From an uncultured Chloroflexia bacterium (GTDB taxonomy: Bacteria > Chloroflexota > Ktedonobacteria > Ktedonobacterales > JADMIN01): DNA of 64,000 nt. The stretch is from contig CAWEJL010000007.1 of NCBI GenBank assembly GCA_963809385.1, positions 195,305-259,304 of the forward strand, read 5' to 3'. The notes below the pieces were generated by a model. The model saw only the letters and a list, made by a program, of their open reading frames with translations. It ran no database searches and was not told the DNA's origin. Positions 16,659 to 32,266 of the stretch are shown in pieces; position 1 is the stretch's first letter, and each line of letters opens with the position of its first letter. The translations under genes and the position numbers were made by a program.

Positions 16659-17720
16659 CTAGGCGACGGCGCGGCCGGCGACCCGCGCCTCCGGGCGCAT
16701 GACAATGAGGGCATAGATCAGCGCCACCAGCATGATGGCCACCGGAGCCACGATACTGACGATGTACTGCTCGGCGGGGACACCCGCTGTGCTCGTTATC
16801 GCGCCGGTCGGTTCGGTGATGAAGAATCCCAGCCACGGGTTGTTCAGGATATAGCCATCCATCCACGGGATGGACATCCTGAGCTGGATTTCAGGGCCCG
16901 CTGAGAGCAGCGCCAGCGCGGTGAGCGCGATCCAGCTGGCCAGCCACCCCCAGCGGCCCGTCTGGGCGGCGTGCGCCAGCGCCGCGCTGGCGATCGCCAC
17001 CGGCAGCGCGGCCAGCGCGATCCAGACGACGGGCAGCATGAGCTGCAATTCGAGGATCTTTTCCATTTGCAGGGGCGAACCATTTCCAAACAGCTGGAAC
17101 AGGACATGTGCGGTCGCCAGGTAGCCGAGCGCGCTCATGACCACGATCCCGACGATCGCCCACACGATGAGCGCGCGCCGCTCGCCCTGACCCACCCCCA
17201 CTGTGGCGCGCCCCGCCGCGCTCCGGGCTGAGGTGAGGGAATAGACCAGCGCGGCGAGCGGGACGAGCAGGAACGCCACAGCCCAACCCGCCTGAGTGAC
17301 GAATGGCGCCGTCCCAGTTGAGATTCCTGGGCAGTCGGCGTTGGAAGCGCAGGGCGTGGCGAACAGCAGAATCTGGACGCTAGCGGTCAGCGAATTGATC
17401 CAGGCGGCGATGGGCGCGATAACGAGCAGCGCGATGAAGAGCGCCATCCAGCCCCGGCGGCCCGCCCGCGCGGCGTCGCTGGCGGCCAGGACGCCCAGCG
17501 GGATGACCAGCAAGACCCAGAGCTGCAGCGCCAATACCACCCCCAGCGTCCAATCACCCCAGTCTTGCTCGCGAAAGAAACTCGCCGGGTGTGTCAACAA
17601 TGCGGCCACGAACGCTACCATCGCTACCAGCGCCACGATCGCGTACACGCGGATCGCCTGTCGCATACGTTCCTCTTTCCTCCTCCATCGGGAACGCAAG
17701 GGTTCAGGATGTGTCCTCAT
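16659..17720 (-). CDS. hypothetical polytopic membrane protein
   Basis: 353-aa ORF with about 9 hydrophobic helices and no known motif. Confidence 0.5.
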   Translation of the reverse strand: MRTHPEPLRSRWRRKEERMRQAIRVYAIVALVAMVAFVAALLTHPASFFREQDWGDWTLGVVLALQLWVLLVIPLGVLAASDAARAGRRGWMALFIALLVIAPIAAWINSLTASVQILLFATPCASNADCPGISTGTAPFVTQAGWAVAFLLVPLAALVYSLTSARSAAGRATVGVGQGERRALIVWAIVGIVVMSALGYLATAHVLFQLFGNGSPLQMEKILELQLMLPVVWIALAALPVAIASAALAHAAQTGRWGWLASWIALTALALLSAGPEIQLRMSIPWMDGYILNNPWLGFFITEPTGAITSTAGVPAEQYIVSIVAPVAIMLVALIYALIVMRPEARVAGRAVA

Positions 17721-17848
17721 CCTCGAACGTCTCGCGCCGCTCTTTCTACGCCCGGTTGCGCGCGAGGTTGCATGCGGGCAAAAAGAGAAGCTGGCTGGCC
17801 ACCTGAGCTCAGGTGGTCAGCCAACGGGTGAACCTCGTGGGGAAGCGC

Positions 17849-17889
17849 TACTCGCGGATGCGGCGGGCGGGCAGCGGGCGCACCAGCGG
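17849..17889. repeat. 41-bp direct repeat, copy 1 (orphan copy of the 3' end of gene 19624..22027)
   Basis: TACTCGCGGATGCGGCGGGCGGGCAGCGGGCGCACCAGCGG is identical to 19625-19665. On the minus strand it reads ...NPLVRPLPARRIRE-stop. Confidence 0.9.
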
Positions 17890-18028
17890 ATTCGTGCCGT
17901 TCAGGCTCTCCTCCTCCAAGGACGTCAAATCAGTCTATATCCGTGCACATGGTATTGACAGCATCATTGTTTCATGGCATTCTTGGTCTATAGCAGCTAC
18001 AAGCACAAGAAAGGAGGCAATCTGCAGT

Positions 18029-18238
18029 CATGTAGCGACCTGGCGGCGCAGGATTCGCCCGCTATTACCTTCATCCTCTCTGAACATCACAGTCATGTAG
18101 CGACCCGGCGGCGCAGGATTCGCCCGCTATTACCTTCACTCCAGTCATGTACGACCCGGCGGCGCAGGATTCGCCCGCTATTACCTTCATCCTCTCTGAA
18201 CATCACAGTCATGTAGCGATCCGGCGGCGCAGGATTCC
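18029..18238. repeat. tandem repeat, 3.5 units of 65/52/64/29 bp
   Basis: Units begin CATGTAGCGACC(C/T)GGCGGCGCAGGATTCGCCCGCTATTACCTTCA at 18029, 18094, 18146 and 18210. Units 1 and 3 share the tail TCCTCTCTGAACATCACAGT. Confidence 0.85.
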
Positions 18239-18391
18239 GTGCCATGAATACAAGGCGTGCTGATCTTGCGGCACTCACACTGGTGGAAGTCAGCGCGAAA
18301 AGAAGCGATAGCGCCATCGAAGGACACTTGGTACATCGAGCCACATGGCGTCATACAAGTCCATGTGAGCGTGAGAGAAGGAGACACTCGA

Positions 18392-19024
18392 GTGAAGTCG
18401 CTCCTAGTTTACCGCGCAGCAGCTGTGTTGGCACTGCTGCTATTGGTTGGGACAGCCGTTTCGCCATCATTTACAACGTACGCTTCTCCTGGTACAGGGC
18501 ATCCGACCGCTTTATCGGCCGTCGGAGCAGGTACTTGGAAGACTTTGAAACCAAGTTCTCATCAGTCGGCGAGTAGCGGTATTACGCCCAAGGTATATGG
18601 CGGCCCTGGTGGATCCACATGCCCTTCGGGCTCTTATTCGTATTCGGGTTCCAATGCCCAATATAACTGTATTGACGTCACCGCTGATGGCTCAGGACAT
18701 GGGGTTTGGACGCGACAAGGTGACGGCAACTACGGATACACTCACTTTTTCACTCCCCACAACGTATGGATGTCAACCGTTTCGGCAGTGATAGCCGCAC
18801 AAGCCTACGGCTTATATCAATCAAGCACTGGGCGCTACCTCTACGGCGCTTACCACGTCAACAGCAATGGCGATGTGGATCAGTACATTAATATCTACGA
18901 GAGTAGAAACGCAGCGCCAGCTCCAGATGGTAACGAAATTGGGGTCATCACCGCGTATTGCCAAGGGCCAGGCCGTAGTTTCGAGCAGTATTGCCCTGAC
19001 TGGGTAAATACGTCCTGGCTGTGA
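18392..19024 (+). CDS. hypothetical secreted protein (signal peptide, Cys-containing)
   Basis: GTG follows GAAGGAG. The signal-like N-terminus is VKSLLVYRAAAVLALLLLVGTAVS. GC is visibly lower than in the flanks. No family recognised. Confidence 0.55.
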   Translation: MKSLLVYRAAAVLALLLLVGTAVSPSFTTYASPGTGHPTALSAVGAGTWKTLKPSSHQSASSGITPKVYGGPGGSTCPSGSYSYSGSNAQYNCIDVTADGSGHGVWTRQGDGNYGYTHFFTPHNVWMSTVSAVIAAQAYGLYQSSTGRYLYGAYHVNSNGDVDQYINIYESRNAAPAPDGNEIGVITAYCQGPGRSFEQYCPDWVNTSWL

Positions 19025-19145
19025 CTTTGCGCCGCACATTTCGGAACGAAATAACGGGTGAGCCATTGCCAAGGACTCCGATTGTCTGGAATCCGGCAAG
19101 GACTCACCCCTGGCGATGAGTGCGATGAGTGCAAGGAGTTTGAAC

Positions 19146-19478
19146 ATGCCATACCAACCTCATCATGCCTATTATGGGAAGGTCACAGAAGCAGTTCAAA
19201 CAACTCTCCTTCGGGCTGGCCCAGAGTACGGCTACGAGCTCGTTGACGTTAGCCACCTGGTAGATACCTTGATGATTGCATTCCGATGGCATGAAACTGG
19301 TGATACACTGTTTGTCTGCTCCATTGACCTTCAACTTCATGCCGACAGCCATCATCCGGTCAACATGGCGGAGACGATTGTTTCGACGAATTTCCTCGAA
19401 AGCATCGGCGCTGGGTGGTTTGAGCACATTCACGCCTTTTCCATAGGCAACCTGACATTCGTCACACAAGAGCAGTGA
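19146..19478 (+). CDS. hypothetical small cytoplasmic protein
   Basis: ATG lies 7 nt after AAGGAG. About 110 aa, same strand and islet as the secreted protein. Confidence 0.4.
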   Translation: MPYQPHHAYYGKVTEAVQTTLLRAGPEYGYELVDVSHLVDTLMIAFRWHETGDTLFVCSIDLQLHADSHHPVNMAETIVSTNFLESIGAGWFEHIHAFSIGNLTFVTQEQ

Positions 19479-19623
19479 CGCAAGTGCATCAAACCATAGT
19501 ATTGCTCGATTGCATTACCTCGATGCTGAGGCGAGCGCACAGACACCACGCCGCCGAATGGCTCGGTGGCGGGCGGCTCTGCTCCCCTCTCCCGCCGCAG
19601 CGGAGGAGGGGCTGGGGGCGTCG

Positions 19624-22027
19624 TTACTCGCGGATGCGGCGGGCGGGCAGCGGGCGCACCAGCGGCTGCTGCTGCGACTCCTCCTCCTTGCGGCGCGGGA
19701 CACGCTGGCGGACGAGGAACGATGGCGCGCGGGCCACGTCCTGCATCGGCAGGTTGATGTCCTCGCCGAAGCGGTTGTAGAAGGACAGCTCGAAGTTCGG
19801 CGTCTCGCCCAGCGCGCCGTGAGGGCAGACCTCGACGCAGTCGCCGCAGAAGATGCAGCGGTCGAGGGCGAAGTCCCAGCGCACCAGCTCGCGCTCGGCC
19901 ATCATCAGCGAGCCGGTCGGGCAGACCTGCACGCAGGCGCCGCACGAGACGCAGTCCGTCTGGTCCAGCGACATGTTGAACGGCGTCGAGACGATCGTGT
20001 CGAAGCCCTTGCCGAACATGCCGTAGCAGTTCGGGCCGATCACGTCGTGGCAGACGCGCACGCACTGCGTGCAGTTGATGCACTTGTTCGGGTCGCGCAG
20101 GATGAAGCTGTGCGACAGGTCGAACTCGTAATCGTGGTAGTCCGCTGGCTCGCCGTCGTGGAAGCGGTTGTTTTCCAGGTTGTACTCGATGCTGTACTTC
20201 TGCAGGTCGCACTGGCCGGCGGCCGGGCAGGCGCACTGGAGGCAGCGGCCCGCCTCGCGCTCGGCCTGCTCCTGCGTGTAGCCCAGCTCGATCAGGCGGA
20301 AGCTGCGCTCGCGGTCCTGGTAGGGCAGCATGGGCATCTTGACCTTCGGCTCGACCGGCTTGTACGGCACGATGTCGAACAGGTCGGGCTTGCGCTCCTC
20401 GGCCTCGATGCGCCGCGAAACCTCCGCCATGTCCTCACCGGAGAGGTAGGCGTCAATCGCGCGCGCGGCCAGCTTGCCCTGCGCCACGCCCTCGATGATC
20501 GTCGCCGCGCCAAGCTGGCAGTCGCCGCTGGCGAAGACGCCCTTGCGCGCCGTCATGAAGCTGTACGGATCAGTCTCGATGGAGGAGTACTTCGTCCACT
20601 TCACACCCGACTCCGGCGGCAGCACGGCCTTGTCCGGCTTCTGGCCGTAGGCGGGGATCACCGTGTCGCACGCGATGGTGTACTCGCTGCCGGGGATCGG
20701 CACCGGGCGGCGGCGGCCCGACGCGTCCGGCTCGCCCAGTTGCATCCGCTGGATCTCGATGCCCGTCAGCTTGTCGCCGTCGAGCACCAGCTTGGTCGCG
20801 GCGCCGAACAGCTGGAGGTCTGTGCCCTCGTTCTCGCCGTCCTCGACCTCCTCAGTCGTCGCCGTCATCTCGCCACGGCCACGGCGGTAGACCGTGTGCA
20901 CCTTGGCGCCCAGCCGCAGCGAGGTGCGGGTGCAGTCGAAGGTCGTGAAGCCGCCGCCCAGCACGACCACCTCTTTGGTGTCGTCCACCGGCACCGGCAG
21001 GCCCTGGGTCTTATCCATCAGGTAGGCGATGGCGTTGACCACGCCGGGGTTGTCCTGGCCCTCCAGCCCCAGCTCGTTCGAGGTCCACGCGCCGATCGCC
21101 AGCAGCGTGGCGTCGAAGCCCTCGCTTTTCGAGGTCGTCAATCGTGAAGTCGCGGCCCAGCTTGACGTTGTACTGCACGTCAACGCCCAGCTTCCAGACG
21201 CCCTCGAACTCTTTGTCCACCATGTCCTTGGGCAGGCGGTACTCAGGGATGCCGTAGCGCAGCATGCCGCCCGCCTGGGGCATCATGTCGAAGACCTTGA
21301 CGTAGTGGCCCTGCAGCGCCAGGTAGTAGGCGGCAGTCAGGCCGCTCGGCCCCGCGCCGACCACCGCGATGCGCTTGCCCGTCGGCGCCTCTTTGACCCA
21401 CGGCGTTGGCGGGTCTTCCATCACCTGCTCGGCGGCGAAGCCGTGCATGCGGCAGATGGCGATCTCTTCCTCCACCAGCCCGCGGCGGCAGACCGACTGG
21501 CAGGGCGCCGGGCAGGTCAGGCCGAGGATGTAGGGGAACGGCAGCACTTCCTTGACCAGGCGCGCCGCCTCGCGGTTCTGCCCCTTGGCGATCAGCTCCA
21601 GATAGCCGGGGATGTCAATGTGCGTCGGGCAGCCCATCTGGCACGGCGGCTGGCAGTAGGCGTTGTGGTCGGAGAGCATCATCTCCAGGTTGGTGCGCCG
21701 GATGCCCGTCAGCTTGTCGGACTTCGTGCGCACCACCATGCCTGGCCGCGCGGCCGTGTTGCATGAGGGCAGCGGACGGTCCGCGCCGTCAATCTCCACC
21801 AGGCACATGCGGCAGGCGGAGGTCGGCTCCAGTTTGTCGTCGTTGCAGAGGTTCGGGATATCCAGGATCCCGTTCTCCATCGCCACGCTGAGCAGGGTCT
21901 GCCCCTCATACGCTGGCATCGAGCGCCCGTCAATCGTCACCTCGAACGACGGCTGTCCGTGCTCATTGCGCTTGAAGGGCTCGCTCCCCTGCGACATCGC
22001 CGCGTCATCCCGTATGGTGACAGCCAT
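19624..22027 (-). pseudogene. 2Fe-2S ferredoxin / GltD-like NAD(P)H-FAD oxidoreductase / NuoG-like 4Fe-4S fusion protein, one frameshift as sequenced
   Basis: The N-terminus has CRMCLVEIDG...SCNT. GltD-type CQPPCQMGCP, VAVVGAGPSGLTAAYYLA and VVVLGGGFTTFD follow. The C-terminus has CINCTQCVRVC, CVSCGACVQVCP and CIFCGDCVEVCP. ORFs 21011..22027 and 19624..21183 join if one A of the AAAA run (plus strand TTTT 21126-21129) is removed, giving ...DFTIDDLESEGFDATLLAIGAW. Confidence 0.8.
19625..19665. repeat. 41-bp direct repeat, copy 2 (within the 3' end of gene 19624..22027)
   Basis: Identical to 17849-17889. Confidence 0.9.
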
Positions 22028-22131
22028 GGGTCCCCCGTCTCTAGAGCTTCGTGAACGCCAGGTATCGCCCGTCTATCTCGTGTATCTCCAATAGTATCTG
22101 GAACGAATGCGCCCCATCGCGGGGCGCGGAC

Positions 22132-22227
22132 CTCACCCCTGGCCCCTCTCCTCAGGAGCGGGGAGAACGGGGCGATGCGCTTTGCCACCCCGTTCGCCGC
22201 GCGGCCCCTCTCCTCTCAGGAGAGGGG
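22132..22227. repeat. GC-rich hairpin repeat family 2, two copies
   Basis: CTCACCCCTGGCCCCTCTCCTCAGGAGCGGGGAG lies at 22132-22165. A perfect 9-bp hairpin CCCCTCTCC-TCTCA-GGAGAGGGG lies at 22205-22227. A related copy is at 27061-27100. Confidence 0.65.
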
Positions 22228-22242
22228 GTAGGGTCCGTCCCC

Positions 22243-23563
22243 CTACAGCACATGCTTGGTCGCGTAGCGGTGCGCGCGGACTGGCTCGCAGCTTTCCGTG
22301 GGGCAGCGCCCCTCCAGGTGCGCGGCGAAGTCGTCCCGCGAAGTAGCGCCGCGCCGTCACCACCGGGTTCACCGCGCTGATGCCGAAGCCGCAGAGCGAG
22401 CCGTCCGGCACGTAGTGCGAGAACTCCTCCAGCAGCGCCAGGTCGCCCTGCGTCCCCAGCCCGCTGACGACGCCCTCCAGCGTCCCGGCGATGCGCTTCA
22501 CGCCCACTCGGCACGGCACGCACTTGCCGCAGCTTTCGCGCGCCAGGTAGCTCGACCGCTCCATCGCCCAGTGGACCATGCACGTCCCAGCGGGCAGCGC
22601 CTCGATCACCGCCGAGCCGACGATCGCGCCGGCCTCGTGCAGCGGCTCGTAGTCGAACGGCGTATTGAGCTGGGCCAGCGGCAGCGCGCCGCCCTCCATG
22701 CCGCCGACCACCACCGCGCGCGTGGTCGACTCGTTGATCTCCAGGCCCTCCGCGCGCAAGAGCTGCGCCAGCGTGACGCCGAAGGGGACCTCGACCAGCG
22801 CGCCCTCGGTCTGGCCGGGGCCGATCACCGTCACCAGCTTCATCCCGCTCGACTGCTCAGAGCCAACGACTCGGAAGGCTGGCGCGCCATGCGCGATGAT
22901 CGCCGGCAGGTTCGCCAGCGTCTCGACGTTCTGGACCAGCGTCGGCTGCGCGTAGAGCCCCACCTCGCTGGGATACGGTGGGCGCTGCTGCGCCTTCATC
23001 GGGCGGCCCTTGATGATCTCGATCATCACCGTCTCTTCGCCGCCCATGAAGCTGCGCTCGGCCCCGACGACCGTTACCGCCAGCGAGAAGCGTGAGCCGA
23101 AGAGGTCGCGTCCCAGCGCGCCCTGCTCCTGCGCCTCGCGCAGCGCCTCCTGGATGGCGGTGGCCGCCGCCTCGCGCGTCGAGCGGACGTAGAGGAACGC
23201 CTCGCTCGCGCCGACCGCGTAGGCCGCCAGCGCCAGGCCCTCCAGCGCGGCGTGCGGGTTGCGCTCCAGCAGCGCCTGCGCCGCCCGCGAGCGGGTGTCG
23301 GCGTCGTAGGCGTTGCAGACCACATAGCGCGTCTCGCCGCTCCGCGCCCCGGCGACTTCGGCCATCTTGCCAGCCGTCATCACGCCCGATCCGCCGCGAC
23401 CGCGCAGCCCGGCGTAGCGCGTCTCGGCGATCACCTCAGCGGGCGTCATCTGGGTGACGGCCTTGCGCAGCGCCTGATAGCCGCCTTGCTGGGTATACGC
23501 CGCATAGCTCGTGGGGGACTTCTGCCCATCCGCGACCAGCAGGCTCATTGTTGACTCAGGCAC
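22243..23563 (-). pseudogene. NuoF-like (51-kDa subunit family) protein, one frameshift near the 3' end as sequenced
   Basis: Motifs GLRGRGGSG, ESCGKCVPCRVG and GSLCGFG are present. After ...ARRYFA the canonical tail DDFAAHLEGRCPTESCEPVRAHRYATKHVL-stop (stop at 22243-22245) is one base out of frame. The extra base is in the GGG run (plus strand CCC 22335-22337). Confidence 0.75.
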
Positions 23564-24242
23564 GGGTCGCTCTCCTGTGATTGATCGCGCCATACTTGCC
23601 GCGCGTCGCCGCCGACGGCCCGCGCTCCATCTGGTCATCGCGCAGCGCGCCCGCCGCCACCGGCTGGGCCGGGGCGAAGCGGTCGCCCGCCGTGACGATG
23701 CCGAAGAGGTCGCTGATGTCCACGCCCCGGCGCTCGACCACCCGCCACGCCACCTGGAGCGGCATGCCGCCGTAGGCCTCCATCAGCGTGTCCAGCGTCT
23801 CCGTCAGGTCCCAGGCGTCCAGCGAGGCTTCGTCGAGGATCGCGTCGGCTCGCGTCAGGTCCACCGGCTGCTCCAGGCTGGCCTTGGTTGGCGTCTGCAC
23901 TGGCGCGGAGCGTGGCTTGTTGGGGTACTCCACCGCGTACTCGGAGACGCGCGGCGTGTAGAAGCCGGCGATGGAGGTCGCGGAGAAGTAAGGCCGGCGG
24001 CGGAAGCGGTAGGTCGGGCGCGCCTCGATGGTGATGGCGCGCGGCGGGCAGACCTTCTCGCAGAGCAGGCACGCCTCGCACTTGAGGTTGAACGGCGTGT
24101 CCTGGCTCGCTTCCTGAATCAGCTGGATCAGGCCGCGGCTGCGCTCAGGCAGGACGCGCTTCTCGTAGGGGTAGAGCCGCGTGACCTTTGGCCGGGTGAC
24201 GTGGCTCAGGGTCAGCCCCAGACCCTGCAGGATACCGCGCAT
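23556..24242 (-). CDS. NuoI-like single-cluster ferredoxin domain fused to a Cys-free NuoE-like segment
   Basis: The N-terminus reads GLGLTLSHVTRPKVTRLYPYEKRVLPERSRG...CEACLLCEKVCPPRAITIE, but there is no second CxxCxxCxxxCP motif. The C-terminus DTLMEAYGGMPLQVAWRVVERRGVDISDLFGIVTAGDRF resembles the NuoE N-terminal helices. Confidence 0.6.
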   Translation of the reverse strand: MRGILQGLGLTLSHVTRPKVTRLYPYEKRVLPERSRGLIQLIQEASQDTPFNLKCEACLLCEKVCPPRAITIEARPTYRFRRRPYFSATSIAGFYTPRVSEYAVEYPNKPRSAPVQTPTKASLEQPVDLTRADAILDEASLDAWDLTETLDTLMEAYGGMPLQVAWRVVERRGVDISDLFGIVTAGDRFAPAQPVAAGALRDDQMERGPSAATRGKYGAINHRRATRA

Positions 24243-24248
24243 GCGCCG

Positions 24249-24821
24249 CTACTCCTCACCCTTGATCTTCAGCCCCTGCTTCTCGATCTTCTCGCGCAGC
24301 TTGAGCAGCCCTTCGATCAGCGCCTCCGGGCGCGGCGGGCAGCCGGGGACGTAGACATCCACCGGCACCAGCGTATCCACGCCCTGTACGGTGTAGTAGC
24401 TGTCGTAGAACTCGCCGCCCGACGTGGCGCACTGGCCCATCGAAAGCACCCACTTGGGCTCGGCCATCTGCTCGTAGAGCCGCACCAGGCGCGAGCCCAT
24501 CTTGGTGGAGACGGTGCCGGCGACGATCATCAGGTCAGCCTGGCGCGGGCTGGCGCGGAACACTTCGGAGCCGAAGCGCGCCATGTCGTAGTGCGGCTGG
24601 CCGGCCGCCATCATCTCAATCGCGCAGCACGCCAGGCCGTAGCCCAGCGGCCAGATCGAGCGGCTGCGGGCGTAGTTCTTCGCCCAGTTGAGCATATCGG
24701 CGAGGCTGGTCAGCGCGACCGGGGCCTCCTGTTGGCCGGGGATATAGTCCGCTGGAGTGCGGGCGGTCATCGAAGTCGCCATTGGCAGGGCGACCCCGCG
24801 CCGTGAAGGATTCGTGCTCAT
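24249..24821 (-). CDS. NuoB-like (20-kDa/PSST, hydrogenase small-subunit-like) 4Fe-4S protein
   Basis: Contains [39 protein letters not shown] and [13 protein letters not shown], so all four N2-type Cys are present. Confidence 0.85.
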
Positions 24822-25059
24822 AACGTGGTTATGGTCCCTTCTGGCCCGTCACGCGGCGCCCCCGGCGGACCGTTGCGATCCGTTGCGCGGGAGACGTCCG
24901 GAGTGTGCGGAGGAAGGCGCGCATGGTCAGCGCCACCGAAGCTGATGAAGCGGGCGTAGCGGGTCAACCGCGTGCGGTCCGTCGCGCCCGTAGGGAAGCA
25001 ACCCCATCTGGCATTATAACATGGCCTCCCCACCCGCGCACGCCCGATACACCGCCTGT

Positions 25060-25351
25060 CTAGCGAGCGTCAGCGCTCCGCTGCTCGTAGATGTACGTGA
25101 TGAACTCGTCCACAGACTCATCCTCTGGCCATGCTGACGACTTGTAGGGCGCTTACATCTGTCACAGGGGAAACATGCTGCTCGCTGGCAAGTTCCTCTA
25201 GAGAGGGACTATCCCAGAACGTGGCCGAGGCGCTTGTGAGCGGCGCCAGGGAACGCGCTAACGACTGCGCCAACCCTTGAAGAATCTCGAGTTGGGACTC
25301 AGGGGGGAGCGCGCGCGCCGCTTTGAGTATTTTTTGCGCGTCTACTGACAT
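25060..25351 (-). pseudogene. putative addiction-module antitoxin-like protein, one frameshift as sequenced
   Basis: The N-terminus VDAQKILKAARALPPESQLEILQGLAQSL is followed by FWDSPSLEELASEQHVSPV. The expected tail WPEDESVDEFITYIYEQRSADAR-stop (stop 25060-25062) is in another frame starting at about 25131. Confidence 0.45.
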
Positions 25352-25497
25352 GGCGCCGCTCCTTGATCTGACTCGGCCCTGGTTGGCGCGAAATGCGCTG
25401 TGTACGTGCGCACCGGAAGTATATCAAAAAAACTTCCAGGGTGGATGGCTGGCGGCGCGCCTTCACCTGCCGCCAGCCATTCGCCGCGCTCCCAGCC

Positions 25498-27033
25498 CTA
25501 ATACGCCTTGGCGAAGACCGCCCAGGCCGTCGCGGGCTTGTCGCAGCGCACGCACGTCCCGCTCTCGGCGGTCTGGCGCTCCGAGCGGTCGAGGGGCAGG
25601 TTGCGGATCGTCGCCTGCGTCTCGGCCTTGATCGCCGCCTCGCAGGCCGCGTCGCCACACCACCAGCCCTCGACGAAGCCCAGCGCGCTCTTGTCCGCCA
25701 TCAGCGCCTTGAACGCCGCGTAGTCCGCCGCCGTGGCGGTGCGTCCCAGCCGGAAGGCCAGCGCCTGGTCGTAGAGCGTTTGCTGGATCTCCTCCAGCAG
25801 CGCGGGCACGCGGGTGGCTACGTCGTCACGCGCGACCGTTTCCTTGGCGGAGCGGTCGGTGCGGGGGACGAGCATGACATGCCCGGCGGCGGCGTCGCGG
25901 GGTCCGATCTCGATGCGCACGGGGACGCCGCGTAGCTCCCAGTGGTTGTACTTGAAGCCAGGCCGCTCCTCGCGCCAGTCGCTCTTGACGCGCACGCCCG
26001 CGCGGCGCAGCGCCGTCTCCACCTCGCCCGCCAGCGCCGCCACCGCCTCGCGCTCGGCGTCGTTGCGCCAGATGGGCACGATCACCGCCTGGATGGGCGC
26101 CACATGGGGAGGCATCCGCAGCCCGTTGGCGTCGCCGTGCGCCATGATCAGCGCGCCGATCATGCGCGTGCTGGAGCCCCAGCTGGTCGTCCAGGCGGTC
26201 TTCTGCTGCCCGTCGGCGTCCTGGAAGCTGATCTCGAAGCTGCGGGCGAAGTTCTGTCCCAGATTGTGCGACGTGCCCATCTGGAGCGCCTTGCCGTCAC
26301 CCATCATCGCCTCCAGGCTGTAGGTGCGCAGCGCCCCGGCGAACTTCTCGCTCTCCGACTTCAGCCCGGCGATGACAGGGATCGCTAGCTCTTTCTCCAT
26401 GAAGTCCTGGTAGACGTCACGCAGGATCAGCAGCGTCTCCGCCTCGGCTTCGGCCTCGTCGCGATGCACCGTATGCCCCTCCTGCCAGAGGAACTCCGTC
26501 GTGCGCAGGAAGGGTCGCGTGCGTTTCTCCCAGCGCACGACGTTGGCCCACTGGTTGTAGAGCATGGGCAGGTCGCGGTAGCTATGCACCCACTGGGCGT
26601 ACATGTACCCGATGACCGTCTCCGAGGTGGGCCGCACCACCAGAGGCTCCTCCAGCTCCTCGCCGCCTGCCTTGGTGACGAGCGCCACCTCAGGCGCGAA
26701 GCCCTCCACGTGCTCCGCCTCCTTCGCCAGGAAGCTGTAGGGGATGAAGAGTGGGAAGTACAGGTTCTCATGCCCCGTCGCCTTGATGCGGCCGTCCATC
26801 AGCCGCTGCATGTTCTCCCACAGCGCGTAGCCGTAGGGCCGGATGACCATACAGCCGCGCACAGGCGAGAGGTCGGCCAGGTCGGCCTTGTAGACCACAT
26901 CCTGATACCACTGGGCGTAATCGTCGAGGTCGGCGACGTCGCGCACCAGCTTCGCTTCGGTCTTCGTGTCGGCCTTCACCGTTGTCTTGGCGCTTGCCGC
27001 GTCGCCCTTGCCACCATTCTTCTTGTTAGCCAT
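25498..27033 (-). CDS. proS: proline--tRNA ligase (archaeal/eukaryote-like type, no insertion editing domain)
   Basis: ATG follows AGGAGG. Motifs include RPTSET, FLRTTEFLWQEGHT, GTSHNLGQNF, and a C-terminal Cys cluster ending AKAY. The longer ORF-track start at 27423 runs through the T-box leader. Confidence 0.9.
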   Translation of the reverse strand: MANKKNGGKGDAASAKTTVKADTKTEAKLVRDVADLDDYAQWYQDVVYKADLADLSPVRGCMVIRPYGYALWENMQRLMDGRIKATGHENLYFPLFIPYSFLAKEAEHVEGFAPEVALVTKAGGEELEEPLVVRPTSETVIGYMYAQWVHSYRDLPMLYNQWANVVRWEKRTRPFLRTTEFLWQEGHTVHRDEAEAEAETLLILRDVYQDFMEKELAIPVIAGLKSESEKFAGALRTYSLEAMMGDGKALQMGTSHNLGQNFARSFEISFQDADGQQKTAWTTSWGSSTRMIGALIMAHGDANGLRMPPHVAPIQAVIVPIWRNDAEREAVAALAGEVETALRRAGVRVKSDWREERPGFKYNHWELRGVPVRIEIGPRDAAAGHVMLVPRTDRSAKETVARDDVATRVPALLEEIQQTLYDQALAFRLGRTATAADYAAFKALMADKSALGFVEGWWCGDAACEAAIKAETQATIRNLPLDRSERQTAESGTCVRCDKPATAWAVFAKAY

Positions 27034-27060: not shown

Positions 27061-27100
27061 CTCACCCCCTGCCCCCTCTCCTCTGCGGAGGCGAGGGGTG
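27061..27100. repeat. GC-rich hairpin repeat family 2 copy
   Basis: CTCACCCCCTGCCCCCTCTCCTCTGCGGAGGCGAGGGGTG lies between the T-box terminator and the proS ribosome-binding site. Confidence 0.6.
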
Positions 27101-30808: not shown

Positions 30809-31278
30809 AAATATCACCTCTCCCGTTCGTTGTGGCGTTACTTCCCCAGGCGATCCCTGCCCTACGCAGCCTGACGCCGCGCGTCTGATGGCGCGCGGCG
30901 TTTGTGGGCGCGCGCTCCATGCGCAAGGGCCCTCGGCGAGTGTAGCCTTCCTGGCTTTCCGCCGCGCTCACAGTCCGCTCACAGAACGCTTGTGGCGCCT
31001 CGCGTCCGCGAGATGGCTGTGAGATCCGTTCGTGAGGGGCGTACATAGAGGAGAGCGCGGCCTTGGAGGGCATACCAGACGCCACAGCGGCGTCACAAAG
31101 CGATCACAGCGCGTGCTCGACGCGGACTGCGACATGCGCCGTGCGGCCACGTATAGTAATCCTGAAACGCGCGCGGGACATCACAGCGCGGCGCCGATAT
31201 TCAAGGGAATGCGGCCCTGGTCGCTGGCGCGCTCCTTATCTACCGCTCACAATCATGTATAAGAAAGCTGGCGTGGCG

Positions 31279-32266
31279 ATGTCTTCTGAGACGCGGGGGC
31301 CGGTGGGCGTCCTGCTGATGGCCTATGGCTCACCCAACAGCCTCGACGAGGTGTTGCCCTACTATACCGATGTGCGCGGCGGGCATGCCCCGTCGGCTGA
31401 GCAGCTCGCGGTCGTCTACGATCACTATGCCCGTATCGGCGGCCCCACCGGACTGCTGGCGATTTCCGAGGCGCAGGCCGCCGCGCTCCAGGCGCGCCTG
31501 GACGCCGCCGCGCCCGGCGCCTACCGCGTGTACCTCGGCATGCGCCACTGGCGCCCGTTCATCGCGGACACCGTCCGCCAGATGGCGGCGGATGGCGTCC
31601 GTGATGCGGTAGCGATCGCGCTGGCCCCCCAGGATTCGCGCATCAGCGTCGGCGGCTACATCGCCAGCGTCGAAAAGGCGCTCGATGCGCTGGCGCAAGA
31701 GGCGGGCGCGGAAACAGCCGACAGGCGAGACGCCCGCCCCGGCGATCCGCTTCACCTTCGTGCGCTCCTGGCATGCTGAGCCGCACTTTCTCCAGCTGCT
31801 CGCGGAGCGTGTGGTCGTGACGCGTGAGCGCGCCTTCTCGCCGGCGGAGCACGACGTGGTCCACGTCATCTTCTCCGCGCACAGCCTGCCAGAGCGCATC
31901 CTGACCTGGAACGATCCCTACCCCGCCGAGCTGCGCGCGACGGTGGCGGGCGTCACCCAGCGGCTGGGGCTGGATGAGACGCGGTGGACCTTCGCCTACC
32001 AGAGCGCGGGCCGCACGCCGGAGCCGTGGCTGGGGCCGTCCATTCAGGAGGTCATCCCGCAATTGGCGGCGCGCGGCGTCTCGGCGGCGCTCGTCTGCCC
32101 AGTCGGGTTCGTCGCGGACAATCTGGAGATTCTCTATGACATCGATATCGAGCTGCACGATCTGGCGGCGCGGCAGGGCTTCCATCTGGAGCGCATCGCC
32201 ATGCCCAACGCCGCGCCGCTGCTGATCGAGGCGCTCGCCAGCGTTGTCCAACATGCCGCGCTGTGA
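31279..32266 (+). pseudogene. hemH: ferrochelatase, one frameshift as sequenced
   Basis: The N-terminal half (VGVLLMAYGSP...MRHWRPFI) is in frame 1. The C-terminal half (IRFTFVRSWH...FSAHSLP...VCPVGFVADNLEILYDID) is in frame 2. The junction is at about 31700-31745, near a CGCCCGCCCCGG run. Confidence 0.85.

Follow-up and report, generated by a model that had tools for sequence, protein, structure and literature searches.

We analyzed a 64-kb window of DNA (64,000 nucleotides of contig CAWEJL010000007.1, assembly GCA_963809385.1) from an uncultured Chloroflexia bacterium of the order Ktedonobacterales, focusing on a set of four genes at positions 19624-24821 whose products are related to subunits of respiratory complex I. 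All coordinates refer to the whole window; other loci are labelled L### and single proteins P####. An initial annotation, made from the letters of the sequence, had described these genes as co-directional on the minus strand, packed with gaps or overlaps of about 8 nt or less, and interrupted by a single gap of 215 bp. Our analysis agrees on each of these points: 6 nt separate the first gene from the second, the second and third overlap by 8 nt if the GTG at 23563 is the start codon of the latter, and the gap between the third and fourth genes measures exactly 215 bp (22028-22242) and contains hairpins. The domain search that the annotation had recommended was carried out with Pfam on the open reading frames (ORFs) of the cluster, and its domain calls proved essentially right, with the refinements described for each gene below.

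The first gene, nuoB (24249-24821, minus strand), encodes a 190 amino acid canonical subunit of the NuoB/PSST type, which carries cluster N2 (Pfam Oxidored_q6, 1.1e-28). All four cluster cysteines recognized in the initial annotation are present, in the motifs CCAIEMM, QCATSGG, and PGCPP, with the tandem cysteines encoded at 24609-24629. The protein scores above the NCBIfam cut-offs for the NuoB subfamily (235 bits vs. 116 for NF005012; 225 vs. 143 for TIGR01957), keeps 45 of the 45 positions that are at least 95% conserved among 78 canonical NuoB sequences (44-45 across its family), and has a mean identity of 63% to canonical NuoB, compared with 67% among the canonical sequences themselves. 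This pattern suggests that NuoB is under no relaxed constraint, and it fits continued contact with NuoD, NuoH, and NuoI.

The second gene (23556-24242, minus strand) encodes a 228 amino acid protein that lacks a Pfam family of its own, gives one weak Fer4 motif, and is at present annotated as "hypothetical" or "ferredoxin"; no exact match to its product was found in the sequence collection searched. It had been described as half a NuoI, which is correct for residues 1-83 (23994-24242). This segment corresponds to the N-terminal half of NuoI/TYKY and contains one CxxCxxCxxxCP motif (24045-24080): a profile of 24 family members matches TYKY/NuoI chains at about 3e-13 over residues 4-83, the NCBIfam NuoI model TIGR01971 matches at 9e-13 (under its cut-off), and canonical NuoI proteins match 24239-23994 by tblastn. 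The N-terminal segment of NuoI (YPxEK...RxRG) is kept with about 45% identity to canonical NuoI; in complex I structures this segment includes an amphipathic helix lying at the membrane interface. What the earlier description missed is that residues 124-200 (23643-23873) correspond to the N-terminal helical domain of NuoE/HydC/NfnC (PDB profile matches to 9bov_C, 1.7e-7, 8a6t_C, 3.8e-5, and 7p5h_C), the match on the NfnC chain being limited to residues 18-85 of 176. An AlphaFold2 model of the protein has a mean pLDDT (predicted local distance difference test) of 52 and is confident for residues 121-200 only, and the best Foldseek matches of the model are the NfnC chains 9bp5_C and 9bov_C (root-mean-square deviation of 1.6-1.8 Å over 66-67 residues). 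The thioredoxin-like [2Fe-2S] domain of NuoE (cluster N1a) is absent from this protein, which has no cysteine outside the NuoI motif. The second gene thus encodes a NuoI(N)-NuoE chimera. Across 28 sequences of its family, each sharing 69-92% identity with the window protein, about 80 positions are invariant, suggesting selection on this gene.

The third gene (22243-23563, minus strand; start GTG at 23563 or ATG at 23548, stop TAG at 22243-22245) encodes a NuoF/BfuB-like flavoprotein of 434-438 amino acids once a frameshift, described below, is corrected. Its earlier identification as NuoF-like is supported by matches to Complex1_51K (1.5e-29) and NADH_4Fe-4S (1.2e-20) in Pfam; its NCBIfam NuoF equivalog scores fall under the cut-offs (306 vs. 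559). The closest PDB matches are B subunits of Bfu enzymes (9bov_B, 9e-102, residues 12-427 aligned with 110-526 of the 584-residue chain), and the flavoprotein is devoid of the N- and C-terminal domains of BfuB. The four N3/B1 cysteines are kept (22502-22537 and 22382-22402), and binding of flavin mononucleotide (FMN) and NADH is assumed.

The fourth gene (19624-22027, minus strand) encodes, after frame correction, an 800 amino acid fusion protein that resembles NfnA/StnA in PDB, Pfam, and NCBIfam searches and is at present annotated as a glutamate synthase small subunit. Pfam identified Fer2_4, Fer4_20, Pyr_redox_2, several Fer4, and Fer4_Nqo3 domains, and the best PDB matches were 9bov_A (2e-175, residues 29-730 aligned with chain residues 5-698 of 1178), 8oh5_C (4e-161), and 9n5u_A (3e-148). 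In domain order, a [2Fe-2S] domain (21719-21946) comes first, followed by a GltD/NfnL-like domain with two clusters and sites for flavin adenine dinucleotide (FAD) and NADPH (about 20422-21658), and then by NuoG/HydA-like clusters (cysteine motifs at 20200-20247, 20050-20085, and 19918-19953). The FAD motif GAGPSG and the NADPH motifs GGGFTTFD (20935-20961) and VYRR (in VYRRGR, 20875-20892) are all present. The 2Fe-2S, GltD/NfnB-like reductase, and NuoG-like parts of the protein had been recognized in the initial annotation; its tail, however, does not end as a NuoG-like protein. Homology to StnA/NfnA stops right after CVSCGACVQVCPTG, at chain residue 698 of 1178, and the C-terminal Fdh/NuoG-like domain of NfnA is absent; in place of this Fdh/MopB-like domain, the fusion ends in the C-terminal half of NuoI (19702-19860, RCIFCGDCVEVCP...TPNFELSFYNR).

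No single NuoI polypeptide carrying both CxxCxxCxxxCP motifs (N6a and N6b) is encoded in the window: motif 1 lies in the second gene and motif 2 at the end of the fourth. A composite of residues 1-86 of the second gene product and the fusion tail is colinear with canonical NuoI in alignment. Among the four CxxCxxCxxxC(P) motifs of the set, two belong by homology to the NfnA dicluster and two, one on each polypeptide, to the NuoI pair. The most economical reading of these sequences is that NuoI has been split and would be rebuilt across two proteins.

The nearest homologues of these proteins are labelled Ktedonobacterales, phylum Chloroflexota, and in them the order NuoB (173-190 amino acids), 228 amino acid protein, flavoprotein (426-443 amino acids), and fusion (800-811 amino acids) recurs with intact genes. 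The four-gene set was found in the loci examined individually (L001-L003, L010, L011, L090, and L092-L096), with flanks that differ per lineage, and also in nearly all of 80 metagenome loci retrieved with a profile of the 228 amino acid protein. Conservation of the gene neighborhood, proposed as a check by the initial annotation, therefore extends to about 75 loci. A NuoB search of genome contigs was swamped by the universal ACCAIEMM pattern and gave two relevant loci, L010 and L011.

Two other arrangements were observed in this group. One sub-lineage, L132-L137, encodes the chimera, flavoprotein, and fusion without nuoB, with a HicB-like ORF and a leuB-like gene in its place, and the lower-GC, Ktedonobacteraceae-type contigs L005-L009 carry a solitary nuoB, 79-83% identical, with no other nuo gene within 10 kb. 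No remnants of the other three genes were detected at the solitary-nuoB loci at E-values up to 5. The solitary nuoB and the nuoB-less three-gene sets may be two halves of one further-split arrangement, and their occurrence indicates that gene order is fluid in this group. Two other features of these loci were considered and set aside. An Iso_dh gene beside the set in 18 loci was tried as a possible NADPH link, but it looks like 3-isopropylmalate dehydrogenase (LeuB), and lineage synteny is the simplest explanation. L175 (1-14549), which appeared to contain two head-to-head copies of the set, is a perfect 7-kb palindrome with 100% identity and thus an assembly artefact.

Divergent relatives were found by an exhaustive hidden Markov model search with the profile of the second gene, and their genomic contexts were retrieved by profile search with those relatives. 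Our analysis identified three distant lineages, with one member labelled Chloroflexota, in which the genes for chimera, flavoprotein, and fusion directly follow nuoD-nuoH; in two of them the nuo operon is complete. In L180/L181 (GCA_027399565.1), the gene order is nuoA-B-C-D-H, chimera (276 amino acids), flavoprotein (445 amino acids), fusion (855 amino acids), nuoJ-K-L-M-N, and the operon contains no separate nuoI, nuoE, or nuoG. L177 has the same operon order on a 1.14-Mb contig, and the short contig L178/L179 has nuoD-nuoH-chimera-flavoprotein-fusion. The distant-relative fusions are 46-58% identical to the Ktedonobacterales fusion over 716-774 amino acids and end in the same C-terminal half of NuoI (L180 included). 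Two derived features, the NuoI(N)-NuoE chimera and a fusion carrying the NuoI C-half, are shared by these relatives and the window. The initial annotation had proposed a soluble, possibly bifurcating enzyme without an obvious partner; the adjacent nuoD in L177, L178/L179, and L180/L181 argues against that proposal. Since the three genes lie between nuoH and nuoJ of complete operons, the likely partner is the rest of complex I, and the distant-relative operons suggest that the three unusual proteins are the replacement for NuoI, NuoE, NuoF, and NuoG in a variant complex I.

Several single proteins from this search are informative about the parts of the set. In P0294, one chain of 607 amino acids comprises the N-half of NuoI, the N-domain of NuoE, and a NuoF that has the canonical NADEGDPG motif; this protein may serve as a "Rosetta stone" for a contact among the three parts. 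In P0301 and P0318, the C-terminus of NuoH adjoins the chimera. The NuoE-type 2Fe-2S domain is kept in P0266, P0280, and P0288, with canonical cysteines, and in P0307, where one cysteine is replaced. As a separate observation, L177 and L180 have purH 2-4 kb upstream of the operon, and in L095 it lies about 8 kb upstream of the set, a recurrence too weak to use. The Thermomicrobium roseum megaplasmid was tried, as a guess, as a cultured carrier of the variant, but no Chloroflexi match appeared when plasmids were searched by tblastn with the L180 fusion.

Taking these data together, the four-gene set probably belongs to a complex I-type enzyme in this genome, as detached peripheral-arm genes of a variant complex I. 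NuoB and the three-protein replacement for NuoI, E, F, and G would make up the part of the peripheral arm responsible for electron input and wiring, and in the Ktedonobacterales lineage these genes would have become separated from those for NuoA, C, D, H, and J-N. In the mechanism that we propose, NADH would be oxidized at the FMN of the NuoF/BfuB-like protein and NADPH at the FAD in the fusion's GltD/NfnL-like domain, and both inputs would enter one Fe-S chain, predicted to consist of one [2Fe-2S] and five [4Fe-4S] clusters on the fusion plus N3/B1 on the flavoprotein. The chain would continue through two NuoI-type clusters, bound by CxxCxxCxxxCP motifs on different polypeptides (the N-half on the 228 amino acid chimera and the C-half on the fusion), and would end at cluster N2 on NuoB, with quinone reduction at the NuoB/NuoD/NuoH interface and proton pumping. 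The role of the NuoE-like helical domain in the chimera would be to clamp the flavoprotein. We also lean, by a modest degree, toward the broader view that this is a widespread class of Chloroflexota complex I, with an Nfn/Bfu-derived N-module bearing a second, NADPH-type flavin site, a split NuoI, and no NuoG C-domain, and that its Ktedonobacterales members have no N1a and keep nuoB and the three arm genes unlinked from the rest.

A number of observations weigh against a complex I role for the set. No homologue of NuoA/C/D/H/J-N was found in the 64-kb window when all ORFs from seven canonical nuo operons served as tblastn queries, the matches being limited to NuoB, NuoI, NuoF, and the NuoG N-terminus; the description of the set as an orphan, with no NuoD or other missing Nuo subunit in the window, was therefore accurate. 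Of the Ktedonobacterales-type loci, 45 (the window among them) span 9 kb or more, and in none of these does a further nuo gene lie within 10 kb. It follows that the assignment depends on NuoA, C, D, H, and J-N being encoded elsewhere in this genome, and on reassembly of the split NuoI, both of which we infer. For Thermogemmatispora sp. T81, of the same class (Ktedonobacteria), nuo genes are reported in general terms only (PMC6776052). In sequence, the Ktedonobacterales NuoB resembles that of the full-operon lineages (50-57% identity) no more closely than it resembles canonical NuoB from other phyla. Finally, the flavoprotein is divergent, keeping 58-63 of 101 canonical NuoF invariant positions, and in the Ktedonobacterales forms its FMN/NADH loop has changed from the canonical NADE(S/G)EPGT (e.g., NADESEPGT) to NAYDADxR. 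The nucleotide or flavin chemistry of this protein may thus differ from that of NuoF. In the full-operon lineages the loop reads NGIEADPG or NAYGADPS (loop compared in the window, L133 10734-12065, and L180 10831-12168).

An alternative that we consider improbable, although it deserves to be weighed, is that the set encodes a self-contained, soluble four-subunit NAD(P)H oxidoreductase, such as a non-bifurcating NADH/NADPH transhydrogenase or diaphorase derived from NfnABC, in which the NuoI- and NuoB-type clusters are the exit to a soluble acceptor; this is close to the view of the initial annotation. The behavior of the set as an autonomous unit, with different flanks in every lineage and, at all Ktedonobacterales-type loci examined, no gene for a membrane or Q-module subunit within 10 kb, would be expected of such an enzyme, as would the lack of a predicted transmembrane helix in all four proteins (maximum KD19, 1.56) and the fact that three of the four have their best solved relatives in soluble NfnABC/StnABC. 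A soluble enzyme is, however, difficult to reconcile with relatives in which complete complex I operons encode the same three proteins between nuoH and nuoJ, or with the membrane-interface segment of NuoI retained in the chimera. The unrelaxed state of NuoB at all canonical invariant positions would also be hard to explain without contacts to NuoD and NuoH, and we know of no soluble acceptor for N2-type clusters.

It is very unlikely that the set is what is left of a former complex I or Nfn operon in decay, with its frameshifts marking pseudogenes that have no function in this genome. This possibility was first suggested by the sequence itself: two of the four genes are frame-shifted as sequenced, and no other subunits are encoded in the window. 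Thus, the fusion gene of about 800 amino acids reported in the initial annotation is present as sequenced as two overlapping ORFs in different frames (21011-22027 and 19624-21183) and reaches 800 amino acids after correction, and the flavoprotein ORF as sequenced runs on into the 215-bp gap. Using the syntenic relative L090 (88% nucleotide identity) as reference in a DNA alignment, we located one extra base in each gene. At 22336 (minus strand), a GG has become GGG, which changes the reading frame 30 codons ahead of the flavoprotein stop codon; the alternative frame past this position reads DDFAAHLEGRCPTESCEPVRAHRYATKHVL followed by a stop, like the relatives. At 21124 (minus strand), the extra base splits the fusion into two ORFs between DDLEK and EGFDATLLAIGAW, where relatives are intact. 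Removal of one base per gene restores a 434/438 amino acid flavoprotein with the typical ...RYFADDFAAHLEGRCP...KHVL end and the 800 amino acid fusion.

Against decay, both shifted genes are otherwise free of stops, the fusion is 81-85% identical to its L001 homologue on either side of the shift, the flavoprotein matches its L001 counterpart as far as the shift, and dozens of relatives have the genes intact. Analysis of frames by third-position G+C content (GC3) together with Pfam also showed that at least four unrelated genes of the window are split in the same way, with the Pfam profile continuing across the junction: a ferrochelatase (hemH, 31063-32266), with a 1-nt insertion at 31721 relative to L090, an aldo/keto reductase (about 61500), an extracytoplasmic function (ECF) sigma factor (about 51335), and an M50 peptidase (about 59520). 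Indels are therefore general in the window, and a rate of about one frameshift per 10 kb, in unrelated genes, points to consensus indel errors rather than pseudogenes. Gene models drawn from this window sequence need frame checking. The fusion gene is also broken into several frames in L011 (14537-15150) and L177 (12162-14770), which are public contigs of about 1 Mb; its integrity as one 855 amino acid gene in L180/L181 points to indel errors rather than biology in these cases too.

The least probable explanation, which we regard as nearly negligible, is that the set supplies the diaphorase and the small subunit of an NAD(P)-linked [NiFe] hydrogenase of the Hox or HydABCSL type, whose large subunit would be encoded elsewhere: Oxidored_q6 proteins do include hydrogenase small subunits, and NiFe-HydABCSL chains are among the PDB matches (7t2r_A, 5e-40; 7t2r_B, 4.6e-101), but the first gene scores 235 bits as NuoB vs. 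24 bits each as FrhG and ShyD (cut-offs of 245-460), the NuoI-derived halves are a feature of complex I and group 4 enzymes foreign to Hox, the full-operon neighbors are NuoD (Complex1_49kDa), NuoH, and antiporter-like subunits, and no large-subunit or maturation gene is annotated in the related loci with gene tables. NuoD is homologous to hydrogenase large subunits; Pfam found no [NiFe] large-subunit domain in the five cluster ORFs, and the NuoD tblastn was empty in the window and in the flanks of close relatives.

We also analyzed the non-coding and flanking sequences of the set. The 215-bp gap between the flavoprotein and fusion genes (22028-22242, minus strand) contains GC hairpins resembling repetitive extragenic palindromic elements, including a perfect hairpin, CCCCTCTCC-N5-GGAGAGGGG, at 22205-22227 (0.07 expected by chance) and a second pair of arms (22137-22155 with 22215-22233). 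The gap folds better than 200 of 200 shuffled sequences (z = -3.1). The hairpin block is limited to the window and L090 (gap at L090 11997-12205), the gap being 46-78 bp in L001 and L003, and the approximately 70 nt directly before the fusion start codon are conserved in the window, L090, and L092. A single weaker copy of the hairpin motif occurs elsewhere in the window (27073-27095). No Rfam match was found in 17500-25600, and a promoter and terminator scan gave no more sites than in shuffled sequence.

Upstream of nuoB, the ORF at 25118-25351 encodes 77 amino acids and gave no Pfam match to support its earlier label as antitoxin-like. Its counterpart is a small ORF in L090 (window 25058-25351 vs. 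L090 8366-9183), followed there by a 63 amino acid ORF and a PIN-domain gene; this 537-bp stretch is missing in the window, which leaves a lone antitoxin-like gene. Downstream of the fusion gene, a 51-nt direct repeat (17839-17889 and 19615-19665, 92% identical) places a second copy of the final codons of this gene 1.78 kb away. The stretch between the two copies has a lower G+C content (54%), is unmatched in the syntenic relative L090, and contains a pair of 86-nt repeats (18036-18121 and 18152-18237) as well as two ORFs with no Pfam match; the ORF at 18257-19024 resembles a secreted protein. This region has the appearance of DNA inserted at the 3' end of the operon, with no integrase seen there.

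Among respiratory enzymes, complex I is one of the best studied, and its 14 core subunits are regarded as almost invariant. If the set does belong to a variant complex I, it would show which parts of the electron wire of this enzyme are really indispensable, and it could allow NADPH as well as NADH to feed the quinone pool or, in reverse, the synthesis of NADPH driven by the proton-motive force. Because of the current annotations of these proteins, metabolic reconstructions of these abundant soil bacteria miss this link. Many Chloroflexi genomes have been reported to contain 13 of the 14 nuo genes, missing only NuoG (Spero et al., 2015; PMC4453560), an observation that a variant complex I of this kind could explain. 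Our literature searches found no paper describing this gene arrangement, and the variant is apparently undescribed in the searchable literature.

The set was also compared with known systems. The features shared with complex I are a canonical NuoB, both halves of NuoI, the NuoE N-domain, a NuoF-type flavoprotein with the N3 cysteines, and NuoG-type N-terminal clusters, and distant relatives hold these genes at the I/E/F/G position of nuoA-N-type operons. In contrast to complex I, the NuoI halves are on two polypeptides, each fused to another subunit; the Ktedonobacterales form is without the NuoE 2Fe-2S cluster (N1a); the fusion has no large NuoG C-terminal domain and contains an inserted GltD/NfnL-like FAD/NADPH domain with two extra [4Fe-4S] clusters; and the flavoprotein is Bfu-like with a divergent FMN/NADH motif, its gene and the others being detached in this lineage from nuoA, C, D, H, and J-N. 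The Hox enzyme (HoxEFUYH) likewise combines a NuoE/F/G-like diaphorase with an Oxidored_q6 small subunit, but the set has no large subunit, its first gene is of the NuoB type according to NCBIfam, and the NuoI parts and GltD domain are foreign to Hox.

Nuo-Bfu is a predicted 14-subunit NuoA-N complex in which BfuABC replaces only NuoEFG, with a BfuBC core that has extra clusters, reported from Deferribacteres, Proteobacteria, Planctomycetes, and Nitrospirae (Schut et al., 2022; PMC9304861). The placement of Bfu-related proteins in the middle of a nuo operon, in place of the NuoEFG module, is common to Nuo-Bfu and the full-operon relatives of the set; unlike the latter, Nuo-Bfu has no NfnL/GltD domain, and the flavoprotein described here has no ferredoxin-type domain of the kind used to define BfuB (PMC9304861).

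The similarity to NfnABC/StnABC (PDB 9bov, 9n5u, and 8oh5) is extensive: the fusion aligns over about 700 residues, including the A1 [2Fe-2S] cluster, the NfnL-like FAD domain, and the clusters, the flavoprotein is nearest to NfnB, and the C-half of the second gene product corresponds to the N-terminal domain of NfnC. In NfnABC, this NfnC domain anchors subunit C to B and A, the bifurcation site is formed by B1-FMN-C1, where C1 is the [2Fe-2S] cluster of subunit C, and the C-terminal ferredoxin domain of NfnB (B3/B4) together with the C-terminal domain of subunit C forms the ferredoxin site (PMC11829005, PMC12018979). The set differs in having no NfnC C-terminal domain with cluster C1 and no NfnB N-terminal thioredoxin-like or C-terminal ferredoxin (B3/B4) domain, and in the addition of the NuoI halves and NuoB. 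Given the absence of the C1 domain and the BfuB ferredoxin domain, neither the flavobicluster bifurcation site nor the ferredoxin site could form. A variant complex I built from these parts would provide a concrete intermediate architecture connecting complex I with the Bfu family of bifurcating enzymes.

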